A DNA stretch of 64,000 nt from an uncultured Chloroflexia bacterium (GCA_963766735.1 CAVYBU010000017.1:160001-224000); one strand, 5' to 3'. Shown: positions 33,939-48,034, counted from the stretch's first letter. Notes: generated from the sequence alone by a model not told the origin. Numbers and translations are program-made.

Positions 33939-36063
33939 TCACATGGGCTGCTCGCGGCCGGCTGGCCGCGCTGGGGGTCGCCGATGCGGAACGGCCGCAT
34001 CATCTCGTTGTCCTCGTGCTCCACGATGTGGCAGTGCCACACGTATTGACCGGGGTTGAGGAACTGAGCGCGGACCCTCGTGACCTGGCCGGGATAGGCG
34101 ATGACGGTGTCCTTGAAGCCGGTCTCCCCGGGCTCCGGCAGCGTGATCACTCCGTCGAGTTGGAGCGGCTCGACGACGTCGCCGTCGTCATTCGTCTCCA
34201 AACCCTCACGGTTCACGACCTCGAACACCGTCTCGTGGACGTGCATGGGGTGGGCATCGCCGGTGGTGTTGTAGAACTCCCAGACTTCGGTGGCTCCGGC
34301 CGCCGGGTTCTCGGTGACCTCATCCATCCACTTGCGCTCGGTCCAGACGCCGCCCGCTGACGGTGCCGAGGAGCGCCTCGATGGGGCCGTCGACCGGGGC
34401 GCCGTCCGCGTCGTAGCCCCTCGCCCATCACCTCGATGAGGGCCAGCGGGCGGGTGACGGTCTCCGGAGGCAGCGGCACGATGGCCGGCAGCTGGAGGAA
34501 CTGCGGCGGCGTGGTGGGATCGGCCGCAACAGCCGGCACCACATTGAACTGCATGATCTTGCCCGTCGTGGCCGGGTCCGCCGCATAGAACTGACCACCC
34601 TCCAGTTCGGGCCACTCGTCGGGCGGCGAGGTCCGGCGGTAGCACGGGGACGCCGCCACCGAAGGGCTCGTCCGGGCCGACGTTGCCGAGCACGTAGTTG
34701 CCGAGGGAGACGTTGGTGAAGTCGACGATGACGTCTGCCCGCTCGGCCAGGCCCATCAGGATCCGGTTGCCATGGGGGGCGGCCGTGATGTTGACCGGCG
34801 CGGCCAGGAACCCGCCCTCGTTGCCGACGTGCCAGACCTCGACACCCGGGATCTGGCTGAAGTCGAGGATCAGGAACCGGGACTGGCAGCCGTTCAGGAA
34901 GCGGAACCGGTAGCGGCGCTGCTCAACGGTCTGGAACGGCCAGGTGTTGCCGTTGACCATCATCGTGTTGCCGAAGAACTCGGGGTTCCAGATCGGCGAG
35001 AACGGGCCAGGGGTGAGGTCCCCGACGATCCCGTCGAAGAACTCGCGGGTGTCCGGGTAGAAGAGGGAGCCGTCCGTGTTGAACGATCGGTCCTGGATCG
35101 CGATCGGGATCTCGTAGTAGGTCATGCCCGCCGGATCGCCGAGCGCCGGCGCCGGCCCCGGCAACACCGCCGGGGTGGGCTTCCTGCGGCGGCTGTCGAG
35201 GACCACGTCGTCGGGCCCGCCGCGGACGATGAAGAAGCCCGCCGGCCCGGCGTAGACGTTGAGCCGGGTCATCCCCAGCGTGTGGTCGTGGTACCAGAGC
35301 GTGGAGGCGCGGTTGAGGTTCGGGTACTGGAACGTCGCGAAGCCCGGCCCCCAGGTCTCGCCGTAGCCAGCTTCGCCTTGCTGGCGAAGAAGTCGTACCA
35401 GGTGCCCTTCGTGGCGTAGTCGCCCGGGATGTTGCCAGCCGCCGGCAGGAACCAGGCCTCCGGGTAGCCGTCGCTCTCGTCGCCGACACCGACTGCGCCG
35501 TGGACGTGGGTGACAATCGGGACCGGGCCCGTGTATCGGTCCGGGGTCGAGCCGAACGTCGGGCGCGTGTCGCGGCCCGCGGTGCCACCCGGCGGGTTGG
35601 CCCAGTGGAGCGTCGGATCGACCGGCAGGATGTGCGGAAGATGGTCCCCGGCGGCGCTGACGAGCTCGTTGATCCACTTGATGCGAACCGGCTTGTTCGC
35701 CTTCGCCTCGATCGTGAGCGACGGGGCGTTGAAGATGGCGGGGCCGTTCTGGGCGGTCACCGGTCCATAGCCCCACACCGTCGTTGCGGGGTGCCCGGCC
35801 GGCAGGATCTGCTGCTCGAATTGGCGGACGGCGATCTCGTAGTAGTCGATGTTCTTGGCCATCTTCTGCTTCACCTTGCCGGCCCTGGGCATGGCAGGCG
35901 GGATCAGCATGGGCGTGACGAACTTCGTGACGACCTCTGGATCAAGAGTGCCGCCGGGGATCGCTGCCAGGGCGGTCTTCACACCGCCCACGTATTGGTA
36001 CAGGAACAGGCTCGTGCCGGCCGCGGCCGACCCGGCCAGGAACTGCGTCTTGAGAGCTGTCAT
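33939..36063 (-). pseudogene. Multicopper oxidase (CotA/bilirubin oxidase-like) with several frameshifts
   Basis: Cu motifs THVHG, WYHDH, HPMHVH, WHCHIVEHED are spread over different frames; breaks near 35370, 34640, 34420, 34360 and 33950. Confidence 0.85.
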
Positions 36064-36450
36064 CCGCGACCTCCCACCGGCCGCCATCCTCTCCCAGCAG
36101 AACGGCGAACCCACGCCTATCCACCCTGCACGCCGGTGCACACGCTCGGCCGCCGTGCATCGTCGTCGGCCCGCTCCCTCGGCGAGCCGCTTCGTCCCGG
36201 TCGGATCAACGCGTCTGTGCCTCCGACCACCCAAATCTGGACCATGCGAAGCCAGTCGTCATCCGTGATGCCACGGAGCCGGCTACGGATTTCCGGGTCG
36301 GGTACTGACCGTGCCTCCATGCACGGCCGCGCCTCCGTGGCATGGCTCCGCGGTCGACTCCGGCGGCGGGTGCGACGGTGTCAGCGCCCGTGACACGCGC
36401 ATGGACCGGGCGCGCGAACCGAACGCTCCTCGGACCACCTGGCGGAGAGG

Positions 36451-37650
36451 TCAGCGGGCGGCGAGCAGAATGGCGGCCAGCTCCTCGTCCGTGAGCACGA
36501 TGGGGTTCGTCTTCATCGAGCTGCCACGCGAGTCCGCGACGATCGCCGGGATGTCGCCCTCCGCGACGCCGAACGCCCGCAGCCGGGGAACCTGGAGCGC
36601 AGCCGTCCACTCGCTGAGCGTCACGACGAGCGCGCCGCGCGCCTCGGCCCCGTCGGTCGTCTCCGGCAGGCCGGCCACCAGTCGCCCGAGCGTCGCATAT
36701 CGGGCCAGCGCCGGTGACGCCGGATCACGCTCGGCGAGCGCGCCGATGTTCACGGCCGTGACCGCCGCCAGGGTCGCGCCACATGCCGCGCCATGCGGGA
36801 CGGGGAACTGGGCGCCCAGCGGCGAGGCCAGCCCGTGGACGGCCCCCAGGCCCGCGTGGGCAAGGCAGATCCCGGAGAGCAGCGCCGCGTAGGCCATGCG
36901 GGATCGGGCCTCGCCGGCGCCCGGCCCGCCCGGGTCCGCGTGCCAGGCCACCAGCCCGTCACGTGCCGCCTCCAGCCCGGACAGCGCCAGCGCGTCGGTC
37001 AGCGGCCCGGCCCGCAGCGACGTGTACGCCTCCAGCAGCTGGGTGAGCGCGTCCATCCCGTTGGTCGCGATCCGCTCCGGGTCGTTGCCGGCGAGGAGGT
37101 CGGGGTCCACCACCGCATCGGCGGCCACCAGCCGCTCGTCACGGAAGGATCGCTTGTAGCCGGCCGGACCCCGCTCGCTGATCACCGCGTTGCGCGTGGC
37201 CTCGCTGCCGGTTCCCGCGGTCGTGGGTACGGCCACGAACGGGACCGCAGGCCCCTGGTAGGGGCGCATCCCGGGCAGCCCCTCCAGGTGTTCAACGACG
37301 CTGTCGCCGGTGCGCACGAGCCCGGCGATGGCCTTGGCCGCATCCAGCACGGAGCCGCCGCCCACCCCCAGCACGACCTCGACCCCGGCGTCCCGGTGCG
37401 CAGCCACGGCCGCGTCAACGACCGCCGGAGACGGCTCGTCGGCCACGGCCACCTCGCCCACCACGGTTGCCCCCACGGCAGCCAGCCCCGCGAGAAGGGT
37501 CTGCCGCCGCCCGGATGCGGCCAGAGACCGCCCCCCGGTCACCAGCAGTACCCGGCGTCCGTGACCCGCCACGATCTCGGGCACGCGCCCGAACCCGCCC
37601 GCTCCAAAGCTGATCCTGGGCACACGCCCCAGCGAGAACGGCGAGACCAC
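36451..37650 (-). CDS. Iron-containing alcohol dehydrogenase
   Basis: GGGSVLDAAK, PTTAGTGSEAT, DALTQLLE, GAVHGLA, PHGAAC. Confidence 0.92.
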   Translation of the reverse strand: MVSPFSLGRVPRISFGAGGFGRVPEIVAGHGRRVLLVTGGRSLAASGRRQTLLAGLAAVGATVVGEVAVADEPSPAVVDAAVAAHRDAGVEVVLGVGGGSVLDAAKAIAGLVRTGDSVVEHLEGLPGMRPYQGPAVPFVAVPTTAGTGSEATRNAVISERGPAGYKRSFRDERLVAADAVVDPDLLAGNDPERIATNGMDALTQLLEAYTSLRAGPLTDALALSGLEAARDGLVAWHADPGGPGAGEARSRMAYAALLSGICLAHAGLGAVHGLASPLGAQFPVPHGAACGATLAAVTAVNIGALAERDPASPALARYATLGRLVAGLPETTDGAEARGALVVTLSEWTAALQVPRLRAFGVAEGDIPAIVADSRGSSMKTNPIVLTDEELAAILLAAR

Positions 37651-37655
37651 GAGGC

Positions 37656-37961
37656 TCAGCCCGCTCCCGTCTCGGGGAACAGCCCCTCGTACCGGACGCC
37701 GACACGCGGCTCCACGAACCAGTCTGCCGTCGCCTCGCGCCAGGCGTCGTAGTGCGTGGTCGTCTTGTGCAGCTGCGCCGCCGCCTCGTCCGTGTACCAC
37801 TCGTACAGGACGAACCGGGTGGGGTCCTCCACGGAGCGGATGACGTCGAACCGCATGTTGCCGTCCTCCCGGGTGGAGGCTTCGTGGTTGGCGCGCGTCG
37901 CGTCGACGAACGCGTCGATGCATTCGGGCTTGACGTGGCAGTGGACGAGGGTCACGAACAT
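37656..37961 (-). CDS. ABM-family protein (LsrG/YgiN-like putative quinol monooxygenase)
   Basis: NHEASTREDGNMRFDV, FVLYEWY, HKTTTHY. Confidence 0.85.
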   Translation of the reverse strand: MFVTLVHCHVKPECIDAFVDATRANHEASTREDGNMRFDVIRSVEDPTRFVLYEWYTDEAAAQLHKTTTHYDAWREATADWFVEPRVGVRYEGLFPETGAG

Positions 37962-38155
37962 GGCTGGCTCCCTGGCGGCGGCTGCACCGGCCCCGAATCT
38001 ATGCCGTCTGGCAGGCCAGTATCGGATGATATGGATCGCCTGGCCTCCCGGGCCCGGCGTGCCGCGGGATCAGATCCCCCCGGACGGCACTGTCCGCGCC
38101 GGGACGCGGGGTCGAGGCTGGCAACGATCAGTGCGTCCGTCCCGGAGGAGCGTCC

Positions 38156-38569
38156 ATGGCCCGCCAGTTCGTCGTCCAGCTCGAGAACCATCCGGGCGAG
38201 CTCTCCCGCCTCGTGAAGAACTTCGCGGCACGGGGCGTGCAGATCCACCACGTCGCGTGCGTGGGCGCCGGGCCGCTCCAGTGCATGTTCCTGACCACGA
38301 CGGACGACGACGCCGCGCGCGAGGTCATCCAGGGCAGCGGCCACGAGTTCATCGAGGGCGAGCCGATCATGGTCGAGATCCCGGACGTGCCCGGCTCGCT
38401 GGGCGAGGTCAGCCAGAAGCTCGCGCAGGCGGGCGTGCTCGTGACGGGCGTCATCCAGGCCGGCCGCAAGCCCGGCGTGATCGAGATGGCGTTCTGCGTC
38501 GATGACGAGGCGAAGGCCCGCGAGGCCCTCGGTCTGCACGCCGAAGACTGCGTCGGCTGCTCCAGCTGA
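38156..38569 (+). CDS. Tandem ACT-domain protein
   Basis: VQLENHPGELSRL and EIPDVPGSLGEV; GGAGGAG RBS. Confidence 0.8.
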   Translation: MARQFVVQLENHPGELSRLVKNFAARGVQIHHVACVGAGPLQCMFLTTTDDDAAREVIQGSGHEFIEGEPIMVEIPDVPGSLGEVSQKLAQAGVLVTGVIQAGRKPGVIEMAFCVDDEAKAREALGLHAEDCVGCSS

Positions 38570-38660
38570 GTGCCCGAGCGTCCCGCGGCTGAGTGCCCGC
38601 GCCCCAGCCGTGCCGGGCTGAGCGCCCGGGCCGTGCCCAGGCGCTCCGAGCGTCCCGCGG
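38565..38660. repeat. Short direct repeats between convergent stop codons
   Basis: GCTGAG(T/C)GCCCG at 38565, 38588 and 38617; CCGAGCGTCCCGCGG at 38574 and 38646. Confidence 0.7.
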
Positions 38661-40061
38661 TCAGGAGACGCGGGCGTAGTCCGCGAGGCCGCGCTTGATG
38701 TACTGGCCGTGGCCCTTGCGCCCGGTGAACTCGCCGTCCTTCACGACGGTGGTGCCGCGGCTCATCACCACGTCCGAGGCGCCCTGCACGGTGCGGCCCT
38801 CGTAGCAGCTGTAGTCCACGTCCATGTGATGCGTCTTGGCGCTGATCACGCGTTTGCGGTTCGGGTCGTAGATGACGATGTCCGCGTCGCTGCCGACGGC
38901 GATCGCACCCTTCCGGGGATACATCCCGAACATCTTCGCCGGGCCGGTTGAGATCACGTCAACCCAGCGTTCCCTGGAGATGCGGCCGCCCACAACGCCG
39001 CCGTCGTGGATCAGGTCCACGCGGTCCTCGACGCCCGGCAGGCCGTTGGGGACCTTCCGGAAGTCGCCTCGACCCAGCTCCTTCTGGCCATGGAAGTCGA
39101 ACGGGCAGTGGTCCGTGCCCACGACGCTGAGGTCGCCCTTGCGCAGGCCGTTCCAGAGCTCCTCCCAGTGCGGGTCGGCGGGGCGGAGCGGGGGCGAGCA
39201 GACGAACTTGGAACCCTCGAAGCCGTTGCCCATGTCGTCAAGGCTGAGGAACAGGTACTGGGGGCAGGTCTCCGCGAACGCCATGGCACCCCGATCGCGA
39301 GCCGCGCGGAGCTCGTCCAGGGCGTCCTTCGAGGACATGTGCACGATGTAGACCGGCACCCCGGCAGCCTCTGCCAGGCGGATCACCCGGCCTGTGGCCT
39401 CGCCTTCGAAGATGGGGTAGCGGGCGACCCCGTGGTAGTACGGGTCGGTCTTGCCCTCGGCGACGAGCTGGGCCGCGACGACGTCGATGACCGGGCCGTT
39501 CTCGGCGTGCATCATGATCATCCCGCCGTTCGTGCGGGTCTGCTGCATCGCGCGGAAGATGTGGTCGTCGGGCGAGAGGAAGACGCCCGGATAGGCCGTG
39601 AACAGCTTGAAGTCGGGCACGCCATCGGCGACCACCTGGTCCATCTCGGTCAGCGTGGCGTCGTTGACATCCGACATGATCATGTGGAAGCCGTAGTCGA
39701 TGACCGTGTTGCCCTCGGCCTTGGCGAGCCAGACATCGAGCCCGGTTCGCAGGGCCTGGCCCTTGGCCTGGACGGCGAAGTCCACGATGGACGTCGTGCC
39801 ACCGAACGCGGCCGCGCGGGACCCCGTCTCGAAGGTGTCCTTGGCGAAGGTGCCGCCGAACGGCAGCTCCATGTGGGTGTGGGCGTCGATCCCGCCCGGG
39901 ATGACGTACTTCCCGGTGGCATCGATCGTCTCGTCAGCGGTCACGCCCGTCGCGGCCAGGTCCGCGCCAATCTGCGCGATGACCTCCCCATCGACAAGGA
40001 CGTCTGCCGGGTACGAGCCGTCCGCGGTGACGATCGTGCCGTTCGTGATCAAGGTGCGCAT
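38661..40061 (-). CDS. hydA: Dihydropyrimidinase (D-hydantoinase)
   Basis: PGGIDAHTH, GGTTSIVDFA, FKLFTAY, MHAENG, ETCPQYL, SPPLR, GTDHCPF. Confidence 0.94.
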   Translation of the reverse strand: MRTLITNGTIVTADGSYPADVLVDGEVIAQIGADLAATGVTADETIDATGKYVIPGGIDAHTHMELPFGGTFAKDTFETGSRAAAFGGTTSIVDFAVQAKGQALRTGLDVWLAKAEGNTVIDYGFHMIMSDVNDATLTEMDQVVADGVPDFKLFTAYPGVFLSPDDHIFRAMQQTRTNGGMIMMHAENGPVIDVVAAQLVAEGKTDPYYHGVARYPIFEGEATGRVIRLAEAAGVPVYIVHMSSKDALDELRAARDRGAMAFAETCPQYLFLSLDDMGNGFEGSKFVCSPPLRPADPHWEELWNGLRKGDLSVVGTDHCPFDFHGQKELGRGDFRKVPNGLPGVEDRVDLIHDGGVVGGRISRERWVDVISTGPAKMFGMYPRKGAIAVGSDADIVIYDPNRKRVISAKTHHMDVDYSCYEGRTVQGASDVVMSRGTTVVKDGEFTGRKGHGQYIKRGLADYARVS

Positions 40062-40167
40062 TGGCTGCTCCTCGCGCTTGGATCCCGCCGACCACGGCCG
40101 GCACGGGGACGCTCGACGTGAGGACATCGTACCGAGGTGGCAGCCCCTCTGCGAGGGCCGCTCGCGG

Positions 40168-40377
40168 TCAGCCGAAGGGGAGCCTGGCCTGCACGCCGAT
40201 GGCGGCTGCGATGCCGAGCGCGATCGACCAGGCGAAGGCCGCGCCCGCGACGGCGCCCAGCGAGGCGACGAAGGCGAGGCTGGCCACGAAGCGCCGGCGC
40301 CTGTGGGCGCGGCGCGCGGCGGGACCATCCGCCTCCCACCAGGGATCACGACGACGGAACAGCGACAGCGACGACAC
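40168..40377 (-). CDS. Small hypothetical membrane protein
   Basis: Basic N-terminus then a long hydrophobic stretch FVASLAFVASLGAVAGAAFAWSIALGIAAAIG; GGAGG before GTG. Confidence 0.55.
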   Translation of the reverse strand: MSSLSLFRRRDPWWEADGPAARRAHRRRRFVASLAFVASLGAVAGAAFAWSIALGIAAAIGVQARLPFG

Positions 40378-40520
40378 GGACACCTCCAGCAGGGCTGAGT
40401 GTGGCCGCCGGGACGTGCCTGGTCGAGGGTGACCTCAGGCCCCCGGACCCTCTCCGCACCCCACCGGAGCGCCCGTCTTCTCTGCGGAGTCCGTCGCCCC
40501 GGCAGGGCACCGGTGCGCCG

Positions 40521-40574
40521 CGGCACCGGCGGTCGGCCGGGCACAGGCGGTCGGCCCGGCACAGGCGGTCGGCC
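40521..40574. repeat. 3 x 18-bp tandem repeat
   Basis: (C/G)GGCAC(C/A)GGCGGTCGGCC three times. Confidence 0.8.
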
Positions 40575-40635
40575 CGCGAGCCTGCCGTGCAGGGTGCGCC
40601 CGCCGCCGCCCTACGTGCTCCGGCCCCGCGGGTCC

Positions 40636-41646
40636 TCAGGAGCGGGTCGGTGTGAAGTCCTTGAGGGCGGGGATGATCTCGCGGCCGTAGATCGCCAGCT
40701 GCTCTTCCTCGTTCCCGTTCATGAGGTACAGGTTGAACTGGTCCACGCCGGCCTCGGCCAGGTCGCGCAGGCGCACGATGTGCTGCTCCACGGACCCCAC
40801 GAGGCAGAACCGGTCCACGATCTCATCCGTCACGAACGAGGCGTTGGAGCTGCCAACCTCGGCATGGTGGAGGTAGTCGTAGCCCTCGCGATCGCGGATG
40901 TAGGTCGTGAGCTCCGCCGGGAGATCCTCGCGGGGGTACTTGTTGACCAGGTCAACCACGTGGTTGCCCACCAGGGCCGGGAACCAGCGCGTGCGGTCGC
41001 GGCCGTCGGCGAGGTCGCCCACGTGTGCCGGCGCGGCGGCCATCACCTGCACCGCGTCCGGGTCGCGCCCGGCCTCGACGGCGGAGGACTTCACCTGCGA
41101 CGTGAACCACCGGATCAGGTCCGGGTCCCCGATCTGGAGCATGGCTCCGTCCGCGATCCGTCCGGTGAGCTTGAGGGCGACCGGTCCATAGCCCGCGATC
41201 CAGACGGGCAGCGGGTGCCCGCGCGTCCAGGTCAGCTCCAGCATCGTCCCCTCGAACTCGATGCTCCGGCCCTCGACCAGGGCCCGCACGACGTGGACCG
41301 CCTGCTCCAGGTCCTTCATCGTCGTGGGCGCCTTGCCCAGCACGCGGCGCGCGGAATCGCCCCGCCCGATGCCCAGGTCCATGCGCCCGCCCGAGAGCTC
41401 CTCGAGAACGGCAAGGGCGGATGCGGTGACGCTGGGCTCCCGCGAGCCCGGGTTCGTGACGCAGGTGCCCAGGCGCATCCGGGTGGTGGCCTGCGCCATG
41501 AGGGTCAGCAGGGGATAGGGATCCTTGAACAGCACATGGGTGTCGAACAGCCAGCCGTATTCGAAACCGGCGGCCTCGGCCTGCTTCGTCAGCGCGATGG
41601 TGCGATCGATCGAGTGGTCGGGCTTGAGCGTGAAGCCGAAGCGCAT
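40636..41646 (-). CDS. LLM-class, probably F420-dependent oxidoreductase (TIGR03842-like)
   Basis: MRFGFTL, WLFDTHVL, LGTCVTNP, GIGRGDSARR, WFPALVGNHVVDLV, YDYLHHA; lies between the nitrilase and hydA. Confidence 0.85.
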   Translation of the reverse strand: MRFGFTLKPDHSIDRTIALTKQAEAAGFEYGWLFDTHVLFKDPYPLLTLMAQATTRMRLGTCVTNPGSREPSVTASALAVLEELSGGRMDLGIGRGDSARRVLGKAPTTMKDLEQAVHVVRALVEGRSIEFEGTMLELTWTRGHPLPVWIAGYGPVALKLTGRIADGAMLQIGDPDLIRWFTSQVKSSAVEAGRDPDAVQVMAAAPAHVGDLADGRDRTRWFPALVGNHVVDLVNKYPREDLPAELTTYIRDREGYDYLHHAEVGSSNASFVTDEIVDRFCLVGSVEQHIVRLRDLAEAGVDQFNLYLMNGNEEEQLAIYGREIIPALKDFTPTRS

Positions 41647-41771
41647 CGTTTCCTCCAGGCGGGGAGCTCCGGGAGAATCAGGCGGCTCGGCTGTCCTCCT
41701 CCATGACAGCCGAGCCGCGCGGGATCATACCGGACCTGACTCCGGTACCGCGCAGTGCCGTTTGGCCTGTC

Positions 41772-42619
41772 CTAGAGCTCGACCAGGTCCTCGTACATCT
41801 CCGGGCGGCGGTCCCGGTAGAACTGCCAGGTCTGGCGGACCTGCTGGACGAGGTCGAGGTCCATGTCCCGGATGACGAGCTCCTCGTCGTGGGCGGAGGC
41901 GGCCCCGCCGATGAGCTGTCCGCGGGGATCGCAGAAGTAGCTCTGGCCGTAGAAGTCGTCGTCGCCCAGGGGCTCGATGCCCACCCGGTTGATGGTGCCC
42001 ACGAAGTAGCCGTTGGCGACCGCGTGCGCCGGCTGCTCGATCCGCCACAGGTACTCGGACAGGCCGCGGGACGTGGCCGAGGGAATGAACACCATCTCGG
42101 CCCCGTTGAGCCCCAGCGCCCGCGCCCCCTCGGGGAAGTGGCGGTCGTAGCAGATGTAGACGCCCACCCGGCCGACCGCGGTCTCGAACACCGGGTAGCC
42201 CAGGTTCCCCGGGCGGAAGTAGTACTTCTCCCAGAAGCCCTTCACGTGGGGGATGTGGGTCTTGCGGTACTTGCCCAGGTACGACCCGTCGGCGTCGATC
42301 ACCGCGGCGGTGTTGTAGTAGATGCCGCTGGTGTCGCTGTCCTCCTCGTACATGGGCACCACGAGGACCATCCCGGTCTGGCGGGCGAGATCCTGCATCC
42401 GGGCGGTGGTGGGACCGTCGGGGATGAACTCGGTGTAGCCGTAGTACTCGGGTCCTGCACCTGGCAGAAGTAGGGGCCGTAGAACAGCTCCTGGAACAGC
42501 ATCACCTGGGCGCCCTGCTTGGCCGCCTCGTGGGCGTAGCCCTCGTGCTTCTGGATCATCGACTCCTTGTCGCCGGTCCAGCTGGCCTGCAGGAGCGCAC
42601 CTCGGACGTTACGGGGCAT
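41772..42619 (-). CDS. Beta-ureidopropionase-like carbon-nitrogen hydrolase, frameshift near 42451
   Basis: FQELFYGPYFCQ (Glu), KYRKTHIP (Lys), FWEKYYF, YICYDRHFPE (Cys), split over two frames. Confidence 0.9.
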
Positions 42620-42961
42620 CGAAACTCTCCCTGACTTGCTCGCACGGGTCCCGCGGTCCCTACCGCGGCTGGCGATCCGGCCCACCCCTCCGTGGGGTCG
42701 GCCGGCGAAGGAGGGAAGGATACGCCGCCAACCCGGCCGCGCGCGCGGACGGACCGCTCCGTTCGCGGGGAGCTGAACGCGACCGGGCGGATTCGGACGC
42801 CTCGATCGCCGTGATCCGGCGCATCGCGGGGGAGATCCGAGCGGGCTGGGGCCGGCCGCGGCTGAGAAGCGGGCGTCCTGCTGAACGGCGGTGCACGGCG
42901 GCGCGGCGGAACGGCGGCCGCGGCTGCGCGGCGGGGTACGGCGGCGCGGCGGTGCTGCCAT

Positions 42962-43164
42962 GCACCAGAGTGGCTGGTGCCATGCGGCTGGGGACACGAA
43001 ACTCGTGTCACGTACCAGTCGGGTTGGTGTTGGACACATCCGTACCGGGCGCCGTGCAGAATCGGGTCGGCCAGGCGGTGCCGCTCCGCACGGGTGAATG
43101 CTCAGGGCGTGCTACCGCGCGACGGACCCTGTCACCACCCGGACTTGCACCAGCGTCACTGGTG
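42962..43164. promoter_or_regulatory. Three palindromic boxes in the pyrimidine divergon intergenic region
   Basis: GCACCAG-N5-CTGGTGC (42962-80), TACCAG-N5-TTGGTG (43013-29), CACCAG-N5-CTGGTG (43148-64). Confidence 0.55.
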
Positions 43165-43265
43165 GATGGCAGCTTCAGCGTTGGGTGCAGCCAGCTTTGG
43201 GTGGAGCCAGCGTCGACCGGCGTCGACCGGCCAGCCACGCGTTCACCGGGCCCGTCCCGACGCGG

Positions 43266-43332
43266 CACCCGCCCCGCGCCGTCTCGACCGGCCGGCGGCG
43301 CGTTCACCCGCCCCGCGCCGTCTCGACCGGCC
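43266..43332. repeat. 28-bp direct repeat (39-bp period)
   Basis: CACCCGCCCCGCGCCGTCTCGACCGGCC at 43266 and 43305. Confidence 0.85.
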
Positions 43333-43456
43333 CGTGGCGCGGCCCCGCCCCGCGACGCGGCCTCCGGCCGCTCCCGCGCTGTGCTGTAATTGCCTTCACG
43401 GCTGACCGCGTATCGCACGGGCGGGCCCCCTGACGGCCCCCCGGATCGGAGGAACC

Positions 43457-44788
43457 ATGGGCACCAGTGAACCTGGCATGACCAGCGAGGAGATCGTCGC
43501 CCTCTCGCGTGCGCACACGCTCTTCTCGTGGTCGGTGCAGGGCGCGCTCGACCCGATCGCCATCGACCATGCCGAGGGTGTCTACCTGTACACGCCCGAG
43601 GGCCGTCGGATCCTCGACTTCAACGCCCAGCTGATGTCGGTCAACATCGGCCATGGCGACAAGCGCGTGATCGATGCGATCAACGCGCAGGCGGCCAAGC
43701 TCCAGTTCGTGCAGCCCGCCTTCGCCACCGAGATCCGTGCCCGCCTCGGCGCCAAGCTTGCCGAGATCATGCCAGGCGATATGAACAAGGTGTTCTTCAC
43801 GCTCGGCGGTGCCGAGGCTGTGGAGAACGCGATCAAGCTCGCCCGCCACTACTCGGGCAAGCACAAGCTCCTCGCCCGGTATCGGTCCTACCACGGTGCG
43901 ACCGCCGGGGCCATGACCCTCACCGGCGACCACCGTCGCTGGGCGAACGAGCCGGGCATCGTGGGCGTCGTCCGCTACCCGGACACGCATCGCTGGGGCG
44001 AGAAGGAGCCGCGGCCTGCCGATGAGGCGCTCAACGGCCTCGAGGACGTCATCAAGTACGAGGGCGCCCAGACGATCGCGGCGATCTTCCTCGAGACGGT
44101 CGTCGGCACCAACGGCATCCTCATCCCGCCCGACGGCTACCTCCAGGGCGTCCGTGACCTGTGCGACAAGTACGGGATCCTCATGGTCGCCGACGAGGTC
44201 ATGGCGGGCTTCGGACGCACGGGCAAGTGGTTCGCCGTGGATCACTGGGGCGTCACCCCGGATCTCATGACGATGGCCAAGGGACTGACCTCGAGCTACC
44301 TGCCGCTGGGCGCGGTCGCGATGCGCGACCACATCGCCGAGGCCATGGAAACCAGGATGTTCTACGGCGGGCTGACCTACAGCAGCCACCCCGTGAGCCT
44401 GGCCGCGGCCCTGGCGACGATCGGGGTCTACGAGGAGGACGATCTCCTTGGCAACGCCGCCCGCCTGGGCGAGGTCATGCGCGGTCACCACCAGGCCCTC
44501 GCGGCCAAGCACCCGAGCGTCGGGGCGCACCGCAACATCGGCCTGTTCGGGATCCTCGATCTCGTCCGCTCCCAGGACCCGTGGACGCCGATCACGCCGT
44601 TCAACGGCACCAGCGACGAGATGAAGGCGATCGGCAAGTTCTTCCGGGACAACGGCCTGTACGCGATGCTCGCCAACAACTCGATCCACACGAACCCGCC
44701 GCTGTGCATCACGGCGGAGCAACTGGCCGAGGGCTTCGCGGTCATCGACAAGGCGCTGGACATCGCTGACCAGGCGGTCACCGGCTGA
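43457..44788 (+). CDS. Class III PLP aminotransferase (beta-alanine/omega-amine type)
   Basis: GAEAVENAIK, SYHG, ADEVMAGFGRTG, MAKGLTS, GGLTYSSHP. Confidence 0.92.
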   Translation: MGTSEPGMTSEEIVALSRAHTLFSWSVQGALDPIAIDHAEGVYLYTPEGRRILDFNAQLMSVNIGHGDKRVIDAINAQAAKLQFVQPAFATEIRARLGAKLAEIMPGDMNKVFFTLGGAEAVENAIKLARHYSGKHKLLARYRSYHGATAGAMTLTGDHRRWANEPGIVGVVRYPDTHRWGEKEPRPADEALNGLEDVIKYEGAQTIAAIFLETVVGTNGILIPPDGYLQGVRDLCDKYGILMVADEVMAGFGRTGKWFAVDHWGVTPDLMTMAKGLTSSYLPLGAVAMRDHIAEAMETRMFYGGLTYSSHPVSLAAALATIGVYEEDDLLGNAARLGEVMRGHHQALAAKHPSVGAHRNIGLFGILDLVRSQDPWTPITPFNGTSDEMKAIGKFFRDNGLYAMLANNSIHTNPPLCITAEQLAEGFAVIDKALDIADQAVTG

Positions 44789-44811
44789 ACGGGCCCCAGG
44801 GGGCGGACACC

Positions 44812-45636
44812 GTGACGTCCGTCGGCGACGCCGTCGCCCCCGCCCCCGTCGTCCGTCTGCGCGGCGTGTCCAAGACGTGGCCCGCCGCCGACGGGTCCCA
44901 GACCGAGGCGCTCTCGGGGGTGGACCTCGACATCGCCCCGGGCGAGTTCGTCTCGCTCATCGGCCCATCCGGCTGCGGCAAGTCCACGCTCCTGCGCGTC
45001 GTCGCGGACCTCGTCCGACCAAGCGATGGCGAGGTGCTGGTCAACGCGAAGCCTCCGGGGCAGGCGCGCCTGGACCACGACTACGGCATGGTCTTCCAGG
45101 CGCCGGTCCTGTTCGACTGGCGCACCGTTGAGGAGAACGTGCGGCTCCCGCTCGAGATCCTCGGGCGCCCGAAGACGTGGAGCGCCGAGCGCACGCGCGC
45201 GATGCTGGAGCTGGTGGAGCTGGAGGGATTTGCGGGCCACCGGCCGTATGAGCTCTCGGGCGGCATGCAGCAGCGCGTGGCGATCGCGCGTGCCCTCTCG
45301 TTCGAGCCCCGGATCCTGCTCATGGACGAACCGTTCGGGGCCCTGGACGAGATGACCCGGGAACGCCTGAACGACGCCGTGCTGCGGATCTGGGGACAGA
45401 CGGGCATCACGGTCCTGTTCGTGACCCACTCGATCCCGGAAGCCGTCTACCTCTCGTCCCGGGTCGTGGTGATGAGCGCACGCCCCGGCCGGATCGCCGG
45501 CAGCGTGGACGTGGACCTCCCGCGACCGCGAACGGACCTGACGCGCGAGTCGGAGCGGTTCTTCGGCCTCGTGACCGCCGTCCGCGAGCTGCTGCGAACC
45601 GGCGACGCGAGCCAGCACCAAGCCGCAACCATTTGA
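44812..45636 (+). CDS. ABC transporter ATP-binding protein (NitT/TauT type)
   Basis: GPSGCGKST, LSGGMQQR, LLMDEPFGALD, VTHSIPEA, SARPGRI. Confidence 0.93.
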   Translation: MTSVGDAVAPAPVVRLRGVSKTWPAADGSQTEALSGVDLDIAPGEFVSLIGPSGCGKSTLLRVVADLVRPSDGEVLVNAKPPGQARLDHDYGMVFQAPVLFDWRTVEENVRLPLEILGRPKTWSAERTRAMLELVELEGFAGHRPYELSGGMQQRVAIARALSFEPRILLMDEPFGALDEMTRERLNDAVLRIWGQTGITVLFVTHSIPEAVYLSSRVVVMSARPGRIAGSVDVDLPRPRTDLTRESERFFGLVTAVRELLRTGDASQHQAATI

Positions 45637-45732
45637 CGGATCGGCCCGTTGGGTCGATGGTTGGCCTCAGTCGACAGCGCCGGGTTTGCATCCAGTCCGT
45701 CCGTTGCGTTCGCGACAGATCGGTTTCACGCG

Positions 45733-46026
45733 ATGTCCCGCAAGTCCTTCCCCCTGCCCGAGGCAACCATCGTTGTCTCCACCGACGGCTACTTCGACGT
45801 CTACCCGCCCGTGCCCCGCACCGATGGCGACAAGCCCGCCTACCGCGGCCGCCTCAACGAGCTGGGCGCCGGCATCCGCGGCGCGGACGACCGCCTCGGC
45901 GTTCGACCGTCGTCCACTGCCCTGGCCGAGGCCGTGATCCTGTGGTCCTCGGTCAACGGCAAGTCCGCCCTGAAGGGCAAGATGGGCGGCGGCCGCGACG
46001 GCAACGAGGCCGAAGTCGAAGCCTGA
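45733..46026 (+). CDS. Hypothetical protein (97 aa)
   Basis: Strong C/G third-position bias and normal composition: MSRKSFPLPEATIVVSTDGYFDVYPP... Confidence 0.6.
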   Translation: MSRKSFPLPEATIVVSTDGYFDVYPPVPRTDGDKPAYRGRLNELGAGIRGADDRLGVRPSSTALAEAVILWSSVNGKSALKGKMGGGRDGNEAEVEA

Positions 46027-46153
46027 CGTCCCAGGCCTGACCCGGGCAGGGTGCCCGCGTCGGCGTGACGGCGCCTCCTCCGCCGGTTGGGCTCGCCCTG
46101 GTTCGATGGCGCCCGGCCGCGACAGAGCCCCGCCCCGCCTGCCGACGCAGCGG

Positions 46154-46570
46154 TCATCGACGTGGTGGCATGGCGCCAATCTGGAGGAGCAGGCCGACCT
46201 GGTCGGCGATGCCCCAGTGTTCGATTACCACGCCGTCCTGGAATCGACAGATGTCGATCACGTCGATCTCGACTGGCTTCCCGGTGGGCGGGTTGCCCAT
46301 CACGGAACCGGTGTTGACGCCCCGGGCGCGGTTGCGTGTCCACACCACGTCCCCCGCGACGGCGATGTCTTCGACGGTGAGGGAGAACTCGGACATCCAG
46401 CGATGCAGCGTCGTCGCGACCTGCACCGCCCCTTCCCGGCCCTGGTTGTTGCCGCGCTGGTGCTCGACGCAATCCGGTGCGAGCAGTTCCTCGATGACCG
46501 CGAGGTCACCCCGGCCGATCCCCGTCTCGATGAGTCGGCGCATGCGAGCGGCATTGTCCTCGATAGCCAT
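46154..46570 (-). CDS. SnoaL-like ester cyclase family protein
   Basis: TVEDIAVAGDVVWTR, PPTGKPVEIDVIDICRFQDGVVIEHWG; GGAGG RBS. Confidence 0.88.
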   Translation of the reverse strand: MAIEDNAARMRRLIETGIGRGDLAVIEELLAPDCVEHQRGNNQGREGAVQVATTLHRWMSEFSLTVEDIAVAGDVVWTRNRARGVNTGSVMGNPPTGKPVEIDVIDICRFQDGVVIEHWGIADQVGLLLQIGAMPPRR

Positions 46571-46588
46571 GTCGGCCTCCTGCATTGG

Positions 46589-46628
46589 ATAGAGCAGAAC
46601 TCTATTGAATAGAGTGATACTCTATTGA
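46589..46628. promoter_or_regulatory. Tandem TetR-type operators
   Basis: ATAGAG-N5-CTCTATTGA twice at a 20-bp period in the AT-rich divergent spacer. Confidence 0.75.
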
Positions 46629-46629
46629 C

Positions 46630-47259
46630 ATGGACGCCGTCAAGCCCCCGACATCGCGGGCGCGGTCCACGCTTCGTGCTGAACGCGCCCAGGCAACACG
46701 CCGCCGGATCGCCGCCGCGGCACGCCGCCTCTTCGCGCGGGACGGGTACGCGGCCACCACGCTCCGCGACGTCGCTACCGAGGCGGGGGTCGCCGTCCAG
46801 ACGGTCTACGCGGTCTACGGCTCCAAGGCGGGGATCATGCGTGCGCTTCGCGACCTCGCCACGGATCAGCCCGAGGCCGGTGCCGCGTTCGCGCAGGCGA
46901 TGCAGCAGCAGACGGCGGGGGAGAGCCTGGCCCTGTTCGCCCGCTCGATCCGGCTGCGCTGGGAGCTCGCCGGTGACATCGTGACGATCCTCGGCGATGC
47001 GGCCACGGCGGACGCGGCCATCCACGAAGAGGTGGAGGTGGCGCTCCGCACGCGCCGGGCTGGGGTAGCCAAGTTCGTGACAGCCATCCACGACCGCTTC
47101 GGCCTGGCGATCGATCCCGAACGGGGGACGGCAATCACGCTCGCGTTGACGATGCCCGAGCTCCATGCCGAGCTCGTTGGCGTCAGCGGCTGGACGGAGG
47201 ACGCGTACGAGGCATGGCTTGCCGTGGCGTTGCGCAGAGAGCTGGCCGCGGGCCGGTAG
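46630..47259 (+). CDS. TetR/AcrR family regulator
   Basis: TRRRIAAAARRLFARDGYAATTLRDVATEAGVAVQTVYAVYGSK. Confidence 0.93.
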   Translation: MDAVKPPTSRARSTLRAERAQATRRRIAAAARRLFARDGYAATTLRDVATEAGVAVQTVYAVYGSKAGIMRALRDLATDQPEAGAAFAQAMQQQTAGESLALFARSIRLRWELAGDIVTILGDAATADAAIHEEVEVALRTRRAGVAKFVTAIHDRFGLAIDPERGTAITLALTMPELHAELVGVSGWTEDAYEAWLAVALRRELAAGR

Positions 47260-47332
47260 GATTGCGGCCGCGCCGCCCGCGAGCCCGCTCCGCAGATCGA
47301 GCTCGTCCCTGATCGGATCACGAAGGAGACCC

Positions 47333-48034
47333 GTGGCCACGATCGACTTCAGCCGTTTCGACGCCCTCACCTTCGACACCTACGGCACGCTCATCGACTG
47401 GGAGCGCGGCATCCTCAACGCCCTCCAGATCGTCCTCGCAGGCGATGACGTGAGCCTGACCGAGGACGAGCTGCTCGAGCTGTACGCCAGGCACGAATCC
47501 GAGGTGGAGCGCGGCGTCTACCGTCCGTACCGCGAGGTGCTGGCGGCCTCCGTGCGTCGCCTGTGTGCGGACATCGGCGTCGATCCCTCCGACGCGGCGG
47601 TCGCGGACTTCTCGGCGTCCGTGCCGCAGTGGCCGGCCTTCCCGGACAGCGCCGACGCGCTCCGACGCCTCAAGGGCCGCTACCGCCTGGGCGTGCTGAC
47701 GAACTGCGACGACGACCTGTTCGCGGGCTCGAACCGCCGCCTGGGCGTCACCTTCGACTGGATCGTCACGGCCCAGCAGGCCCGTGGCTACAAGCCGCGC
47801 CTCCAGAACTTCGAGCTCATGTTCGCGACGGTCGGCGTCCCGCGCGAGCGGATCCTCCACGTGGCCCAGAGCCTGTTCCACGATCACGTGCCGGCCAAGG
47901 CGCTCGGCATGACCACGGTCTGGATCGATCGCCGGCACGACCGGCCAGGCTCAGGGGCCACACCACCGGCGGATGCCACCCCGGACCTCGTCTGCCCCGA
48001 CATGCGGACGTTCGCGGACATCGCGCTAGCCTGA
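47333..48034 (+). CDS. Haloacid dehalogenase type II (HAD superfamily)
   Basis: LTFDTYGTLIDWE, LTNCDD, YKP, LHVAQSLFHDHVPA; AAGGAG RBS. Confidence 0.9.
   Translation: MATIDFSRFDALTFDTYGTLIDWERGILNALQIVLAGDDVSLTEDELLELYARHESEVERGVYRPYREVLAASVRRLCADIGVDPSDAAVADFSASVPQWPAFPDSADALRRLKGRYRLGVLTNCDDDLFAGSNRRLGVTFDWIVTAQQARGYKPRLQNFELMFATVGVPRERILHVAQSLFHDHVPAKALGMTTVWIDRRHDRPGSGATPPADATPDLVCPDMRTFADIALA

Follow-up and report, generated by a model that had tools for sequence, protein, structure and literature searches.

A gene cluster in the window analyzed here, a 64-kb stretch (64,000 nucleotides) of DNA from an uncultured Chloroflexia bacterium (GCA_963766735.1 CAVYBU010000017.1:160001-224000; G+C ~70%), encodes an LLM-type (luciferase-like) oxidoreductase of family TIGR03842 together with a dihydropyrimidinase, a CN-hydrolase, a class-III aminotransferase and an ABC transporter ATP-binding protein. 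The locus is probably a reductive uracil/thymine catabolic cluster, in which the LLM would serve as an F420H2-dependent uracil/thymine reductase. The original prediction had assigned the LLM this first step in place of dihydropyrimidine dehydrogenase (DPD). As to the reaction, it is favored by the family of the enzyme, its genomic linkage and the existence of carriers without PreA, and is weakened by a DPD in the same genome and by cofG and cofH not being found. As to replacement, it fails for this genome, which holds a fused DPD and a PreA-like gene on other contigs; here the LLM is a parallel, F420-linked route beside the fused PreT-PreA and the PreA-like paralogue, and no replacement. For most other Chloroflexota carriers, gene content suggests that the LLM is the only candidate for ring reduction. 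Throughout, positions are those of the whole window, genes were chosen by third-position GC (GC3), and families were assigned by Pfam and NCBIfam.

The membership of the LLM in TIGR03842 was confirmed, with the protein covering positions 2-329 of the 329-position profile at a score over the cut-off (Table 1). It is the sole TIGR03842 match in a genome with 17 LLM-type matches, and its only Pfam domain is Bac_luciferase. The closest solved relatives are F420-dependent, led by Mer over the full length (E = 1.9e-37) and followed by fHMAD, Adf and Fgd; the match to the solved Mer structures settles the fold. On the NCBIfam Mer models the LLM scored 151-160 bits, under both cut-offs (276 and 348.7), while FMN-type NCBIfam families scored at most 43 bits. 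The protein has neither DHO_dh nor Fe-S ferredoxin domains and is therefore not a member of PydA/PreA; at most it works alike. On Leisingera and Paracoccus plasmids, a TIGR03842 LLM closes a cofG-cofH-cofD-cofC-cofE-npdG operon. In a tree of 25 LLMs plus outgroup (MAFFT and FastTree), the proteobacterial LLMs had as sister the LLM of the Chloroflexota genome G081, which adjoins a dihydropyrimidinase gene (support 1.000), and a Streptomyces LLM grouped with the dihydropyrimidinase-adjacent LLM of genome G389 (support 1.000).

Analysis of gene neighborhoods showed the LLM in tight linkage with genes for dihydropyrimidinase, CN-hydrolase and aminotransferase over a wide range: in close relatives, in 13 Chloroflexota families and in Streptomyces. 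The close relatives were the 80 best related loci, with LLMs 75-90% identical to that of the window; some of these loci end at contig edges. All 80 came from Chloroflexota metagenome-assembled genomes (MAGs), many labelled Limnocylindrales, so the window was placed in Chloroflexota (Limnocylindria-type) and an actinobacterial origin was rejected. Within 10 kb of the LLM a CN-hydrolase was found in 76/80, a dihydropyrimidinase in 67/80 and an aminotransferase in 60/80. In a phylum sample of 401 Chloroflexota genomes, the window's genome included, TIGR03842 exceeded its cut-off in 62 genomes from 13 families. A TIGR02033 dihydropyrimidinase (E ≤ 1e-100) was present in 61 of the 62, and it lay within 10 kb of the LLM on the same contig in at least 51 (coordinates read by eye).

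The gene content of fourteen diverse LLM loci was also fetched and compared. Abbreviating CN-hydrolase as CNH, dihydropyrimidinase as DHP, class-III aminotransferase as AT3 and methylmalonate-semialdehyde dehydrogenase as MMSDH, and with NCS1 denoting the nucleobase permease, the order was NCS1-LLM-CNH-DHP-MMSDH-AT3 in L120, AT3-NCS1-LLM-CNH-DHP in L124, CNH-LLM-DHP-AT3 in L127, ABC transporter-LLM-DHP in L117, L118 and L126, and LLM-ABC transporter-AT3-DHP in L119. L120 holds a conventional candidate for each pathway step bar ring reduction. Outside the phylum, Streptomyces sp. BHT-5-2 has the CN-hydrolase, aminotransferase, dihydropyrimidinase and LLM (588 bits) together.

The distribution of the conventional reductase was examined in the same genomes. 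A PreA-type match (E ≤ 1e-70) was identified in 13/401 genomes, of which 10 carry the LLM, all in family f1, and three (G094, G127 and G261) do not. Every co-occurrence of LLM and PreA thus falls within one family, the window's own, and a PreA-type gene was absent from 52/62 LLM genomes, including all LLM genomes of the other 12 families. The genome-wide anti-correlation of LLM and preTA that had been anticipated was not seen, with PreA over its cut-off in 9/62 LLM-positive versus 3/339 LLM-negative genomes. Among the close relatives, PreA was searched in 50 of the 80 genomes, picked for long loci and with completeness values not supplied. PreA exceeded its cut-off in 30/50; sub-cut-off matches only (PreA-like at ~285-313 bits, or fragments) were found in 11/50, and nothing better than E = 1e-37 in 9/50. 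All nine of the latter retain the dihydropyrimidinase, CN-hydrolase and aminotransferase beside the LLM.

From the observed family assignments, gene order, conservation and co-occurrence, we infer every step of the following mechanism. The LLM would transfer a hydride from C5 of F420H2 to the pyrimidine, uracil or thymine, at its C6, and protonation of the pyrimidine C5 would give 5,6-dihydrouracil or dihydrothymine. Dihydropyrimidinase would open the ring, and the CN-hydrolase would free beta-alanine or beta-aminoisobutyrate together with NH3 and CO2. Malonate or methylmalonate semialdehyde would then be formed by the aminotransferase, a candidate beta-alanine / beta-aminoisobutyrate transaminase. 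The Fgd of this genome would regenerate F420H2.

If true, the committing first step of a textbook pathway would gain a new class of enzyme, and the widely annotated TIGR03842 family would acquire a function. F420 would likewise be given a definite physiological role in bacteria beyond Actinomycetota. The original prediction knew of no demonstration of the activity, and in the open-access literature, exclusive of supplementary files, we found no paper on an F420-dependent catabolic uracil/thymine reductase or on TIGR03842. More tentatively, and with less than even confidence, we suggest that TIGR03842 as a whole may comprise non-homologous, deazaflavin-driven dihydropyrimidine dehydrogenases of Chloroflexota, Actinomycetota and some Proteobacteria, that the proteobacterial cof operons may mainly power ring reduction, and that most Chloroflexota carriers, which keep cofC/D/E without cofG/H, may use Fo from neighbors, in which case pyrimidine nitrogen scavenging would hinge on a cross-fed cofactor precursor.

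Several observations weigh against this assignment; they concern the conventional enzyme, the genomic context, the supply of F420 and the state of the CN-hydrolase gene. The genome of the window (3.62 Mb, 35 contigs, 93.85% complete) encodes a fused PreT-PreA DPD of 905 aa (contig C3:168288-171005) with Fer4_20, Pyr_redox_2, DHO_dh and Fer4_21 domains, which scored 620 bits on the PreA equivalog NF006183 (cut-off 335). For a PreA-like paralogue (C25:82542-83663), the match is confined to PreA positions 1-329 and scored 306 bits against the same cut-off of 335; this protein consists of the FMN/DHO_dh domain without an Fe-S domain or a PreT partner. With a complete DPD and a PreA-like gene, no reductase is lacking in this genome. 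A co-regulated preTA elsewhere had been named as an observation that would count against the LLM; that objection holds in part, in that the complete fused PreT-PreA and the PreA-like paralogue are present on other contigs. A PreA-like gene also lies inside the LLM cluster in 3/80 related loci (L091, L096 and L100), and G351 and G399, both from the window's genus, have their single dihydropyrimidinase beside the PreA-like gene, far from the LLM. Elsewhere the dihydropyrimidinase adjoins PreA in all three genomes with PreA and no LLM, one dihydropyrimidinase copy adjoins the fused DPD in G271 and G415, and in G129 and the window's genome the dihydropyrimidinase adjoins the LLM. This shifting position is the pattern expected of analogous enzymes for one step, and the three genomes with PreA and no LLM count in favor of the assignment. 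In family f1, up to three candidate reductases coexist; the LLM can thus stand alongside a conventional DPD, as an alternative, cofactor-specific route rather than a strict replacement. As a separate observation, an NCS1 nucleobase permease, apparently in broken remnants, adjoins the PreA-like gene in the region C25:80643-83663 of this genome (L113:8534-9664 and downstream).

Genomic context was also unfavorable in places. The LLM of one carrier (L125, genome G397) stands alone, with no dihydropyrimidinase match in the genome, and no dihydropyrimidinase or CN-hydrolase was found within 10 kb of the proteobacterial LLMs. TIGR02033 matches were present in 146/401 genomes, 85 of which have no LLM, and 82 of these have no PreA either. 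In-vitro assays of SSGG-03002, a protein compared below, failed (PMC10714638). The 82 genomes with neither LLM nor PreA rule out a "missing reductase" as a rule for every TIGR02033 gene. Three LLM-free, PreA-free TIGR02033 loci (L128, L129 and L130) had no CN-hydrolase or aminotransferase, and their amidohydrolases were surrounded by peptide-type permeases, membrane proteins and AllG/AllH-type genes. Given these unrelated contexts, TIGR02033 by itself is no marker of the pyrimidine pathway, three loci being a small sample.

The search for F420 genes, proposed as a check in the original prediction, gave a mixed result. In the window's genome cofD, cofC and cofE are clustered (C18:29177-31585), and an F420-dependent glucose-6-phosphate dehydrogenase (Fgd) is encoded at C17:255376-256356 (435.5 versus a cut-off of 420). 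In the same genome a search for cofH returned nothing at E ≤ 0.001 and cofG reached 16.5 bits at best, so the pathway is incomplete. Both genes were below cut-off in 4/4 genomes of the window's genus, and they exceeded their cut-offs in the same 3/62 LLM genomes only (G138, G124 and G397). cofH was counted only above its cut-off. Matches to cofH at ~250-340 bits were rejected as non-CofH radical-SAM paralogues, many of them in adjacent pairs, which we take to be Mqn-like. The tallies include two unpublished genomes, both without the LLM, G195 in the TIGR02033 set of 146 and G394 in the cofH set of 49; no conclusion depends on them.

With cofG and cofH not found, F420 supply would require an external source of Fo. 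The pattern suggests Fo from outside, or a novel Fo synthase, or cof genes serving another purpose; no description of Fo scavenging was found in the open-access literature. The presence of the cof tail genes without an Fo synthase in 59/62 carriers raises a testable question of cofactor cross-feeding. cofE exceeded its cut-off in 62/62 LLM genomes compared with 33/50 hand-picked LLM-free genomes, a consistency check only, the related genomes not being independent. In families f3, f4 and f45 cofE lies ~1-15 kb from the LLM. It was also seen ~0.5-15 kb from the LLM/dihydropyrimidinase cluster at G367:C2, G375:C24 and G177:C409 and in family f3 genomes, and the cofD-cofC-cofE cluster of the window's own genome is flanked by two luciferase-like paralogues (C18:28243-29094 and C18:32072-32695).

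The ureidopropionase-like nitrilase of the original prediction is present in the window, in an interrupted reading frame. The gene is split by a -1 frameshift at ~42449/42450, beside a GGG run (42450-42452), and positions 3-53 and 67-256 of the Pfam CN_hydrolase profile were matched in two different frames. A tblastn search with the intact 282-aa orthologue from L036 placed residues 1-58 at 42619-42446 and residues 49-280 at 42476-41781. One additional base at 42448/42449 was present in short contigs from 3/4 public runs, representing three studies; these contigs derive from relatives (≥ 90% identity), and no run is known as the source of the window. Run X12 had no contig with the additional base, at a depth there of 0-5.5. 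Compared with these relatives the window lacks one base, for which an assembly error and a real lesion are both possible; in related clusters the CN-hydrolase is intact. The best match of the window's gene, TIGR03381 (N-carbamoylputrescine amidase), was below cut-off, and no equivalog cut-off was reached. Single frameshifts were also seen in several other genes of related MAGs, including the fused DPD of G005, G010 and G020, and the methylmalonate-semialdehyde dehydrogenase gene of L091 (5157-7100) is broken into two overlapping open reading frames (ORFs). Such single frameshifts across related MAGs are compatible with assembly indel errors.

Other readings of the locus were weighed against the same data. 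The cluster could degrade a related cyclic ureide (a substituted pyrimidine, a hydantoin-type compound or a purine-derived intermediate), with the LLM reducing that ring before it is opened. This is unlikely, but it draws on the D-hydantoinases included among TIGR02033 enzymes, on a CN-hydrolase that matches no equivalog, on the canonical DPD candidates that this genome already holds for uracil, and on an LLM-type, putatively F420-dependent yanthine reductase proposed beside the amidohydrolase SsnA in Chloroflexota (PMC12507026). Against it, the dihydropyrimidinase of the window scored far over its equivalog cut-off, and the NCS1 permeases, methylmalonate-semialdehyde dehydrogenase and class-III aminotransferase found in the clusters fit beta-alanine/beta-aminoisobutyrate as products. 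A role at the pathway's end, with the LLM reducing malonate/methylmalonate semialdehyde by means of F420 (as a PydE analogue) or serving as another alcohol/aldehyde oxidoreductase, is also improbable. In its favor, the F420-dependent LLMs already known number among them alcohol and sugar dehydrogenases, namely Adf, Fgd and fHMAD (PMC8498797). Against it, the LLM is nearest Mer rather than Adf or Fgd, and it nearly always directly adjoins the dihydropyrimidinase or CN-hydrolase gene, often at 10-100 bp. No aldehyde dehydrogenase was identified in the window by Pfam or NCBIfam, a gap that such an enzyme might explain, but a methylmalonate-semialdehyde dehydrogenase homologue shares the LLM cluster in L091, L118, L120 and L127; in L123 the sole aldehyde-dehydrogenase match was weak (32% identity, 108 bits).

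We assign a similarly low probability to the LLM assisting a PreA-type flavoenzyme, for example by providing reducing equivalents, or having an unrelated role and being retained by inherited synteny. The PreA-like protein, which has neither an Fe-S domain nor a PreT partner, leaves its electron donor unaccounted for, and its gene does co-cluster with the LLM in the three related loci noted above, but a helper function is hard to reconcile with the 52/62 LLM genomes that have no PreA-type gene. The proteobacterial LLMs without pyrimidine genes nearby would suit an unrelated role; inherited synteny is no explanation for a linkage that persists through rearranged gene orders in 13 Chloroflexota families and in Streptomyces. 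RutA is a luciferase-family enzyme that acts on uracil, and by analogy the LLM could be an FMN-dependent monooxygenase that attacks the ring oxidatively. We regard this as highly improbable. The high-scoring NCBIfam matches and the solved relatives are all F420-dependent hydride transferases, with FMN-type families reaching the low scores given above, and no RutA model was present among the 25 listed of the 28 NCBIfam families matched. In addition, Pfam and NCBIfam identified no flavin reductase partner in the cluster, and cofE accompanies the LLM in all 62 LLM genomes of the phylum sample, with the LLM lying within the cof operons of Proteobacteria.

The arrangement of the cluster is given in Table 1. 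GC3-supported ORFs and hidden Markov model (HMM) matches confirmed that the CN-hydrolase, LLM and dihydropyrimidinase genes lie on one strand and that the aminotransferase and ABC ATPase genes are divergent from them. The absence of preT/preA from the window also stood, with no tblastn match to either the genome's own DPD or a PreA-like protein.

Table 1. Features of the LLM cluster, in window coordinates
Feature	Position	Strand	Evidence
Dihydropyrimidinase (PydB-type cyclic amidohydrolase), 466 aa	38661-40061	minus	TIGR02033, 580 bits (cut-off 393)
Apparently noncoding gap between LLM and dihydropyrimidinase, 574 bp	40062-40635	unstranded	no supported gene
TIGR03842 LLM oxidoreductase, 336 aa, intact	40636-41646	minus	427.8 bits (cut-off 295.45)
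CN-hydrolase (N-carbamoyl-amine amidase, beta-ureidopropionase-like), frameshifted	41772-42619	minus	Pfam CN_hydrolase
Divergent intergenic region, GC-rich direct repeats	42620-43456	unstranded	no Rfam match
Class-III (omega) aminotransferase, 443 aa	43457-44788	plus	Aminotran_3; NF004718, 532 bits (cut-off 472)
ABC transporter ATP-binding protein, NitT/TauT-like	44812-45636	plus	Pfam ABC_tran

The dihydropyrimidinase starts with the ATG at 40061, preceded by GAGGAG. A longer ORF of 633 aa was rejected as an artefactual over-extension, its 167 upstream codons being of non-coding composition. The gap of 40062-40635 has codon-position GC that is not coding-like and gave no Rfam match; in many relatives the LLM-to-dihydropyrimidinase distance is only ~10-100 bp, compared with 574 bp here. 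No riboswitch or other RNA element was identified in 36000-48000 (no Rfam match at E ≤ 0.1). Within the divergent intergenic region, a GC-rich direct repeat of 39 nt occurs four times in 43205-43380, with two copies 90% alike, and other short repeats are also present; the 39-nt units may be operators or may just reflect GC-rich repetitive sequence.

For the ABC ATPase, the best NCBIfam matches were all under cut-off. No ABC permease or binding protein follows it, tblastn with a related permease gave no match in the window, and the four ORFs 3' of it (45633-46612) had no Pfam match. Homologues with 58-66% identity sit with permeases beside the LLM in L117, L118, L119 and L126, and permeases were observed beside a 58-75% identical ATPase in the relatives L054, L117-L119 and L126. 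Just downstream of the cluster (36451-38569) are genes for an ACT-domain protein, an ABM monooxygenase-like protein and an Fe-type alcohol dehydrogenase, which recur near the LLM in 20/80, 34/80 and 31/80 related loci, respectively.

Finally, the LLM was compared with known systems. A 2021 review of F420 (PMC8498797) states that the F420 enzymes of bacteria beyond Actinobacteria were experimentally unstudied, and the word "uracil" occurs in it zero times. The closest characterized homologue is Mer (PDB 8QPM, 1F07 and 1Z69; full length, E = 1.9e-37 to 4.2e-34), which shares its fold class with the LLM and, as expected for the LLM, passes hydride directly from F420H2 to the substrate. Unlike Mer, the LLM lies in a pyrimidine cluster of aerobic-type soil/sediment bacteria and not among C1 metabolism genes. 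Two further systems were compared by description. SSGG-03002/NpsU serves the biosynthesis of mureidomycin and napsamycin, where its substrate is a uridyl-peptide intermediate (PMC10714638). The yanthine reductase candidate likewise comes from Chloroflexota, where an LLM (PF00296) occupies the place expected for an Fe-S flavoenzyme (YgfK/UacX) and adjoins the cyclic amidohydrolase SsnA; this candidate, only a bioinformatic proposal as well, is assigned to a purine (uric acid) pathway (PMC12507026).

DPD, represented by PydA, E. coli PreT-PreA and clostridial PydAc (PMC7332683), catalyzes the reaction proposed for the LLM, from uracil or thymine to the 5,6-dihydro form. It occupies the same pathway slot, feeding dihydropyrimidinase, and the same genomic slot beside the dihydropyrimidinase gene. 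The two are non-homologous, the LLM being a TIM-barrel, luciferase-like protein that has none of the DHO_dh, Fe-S and FAD/NAD domains. Bacteria differ in the electron donor of their DPD, PydAc being ferredoxin-dependent (PMC7332683). DPD draws on NAD(P)H or ferredoxin by way of an Fe-S chain, whereas the proposed donor of the LLM, F420H2, would act directly.

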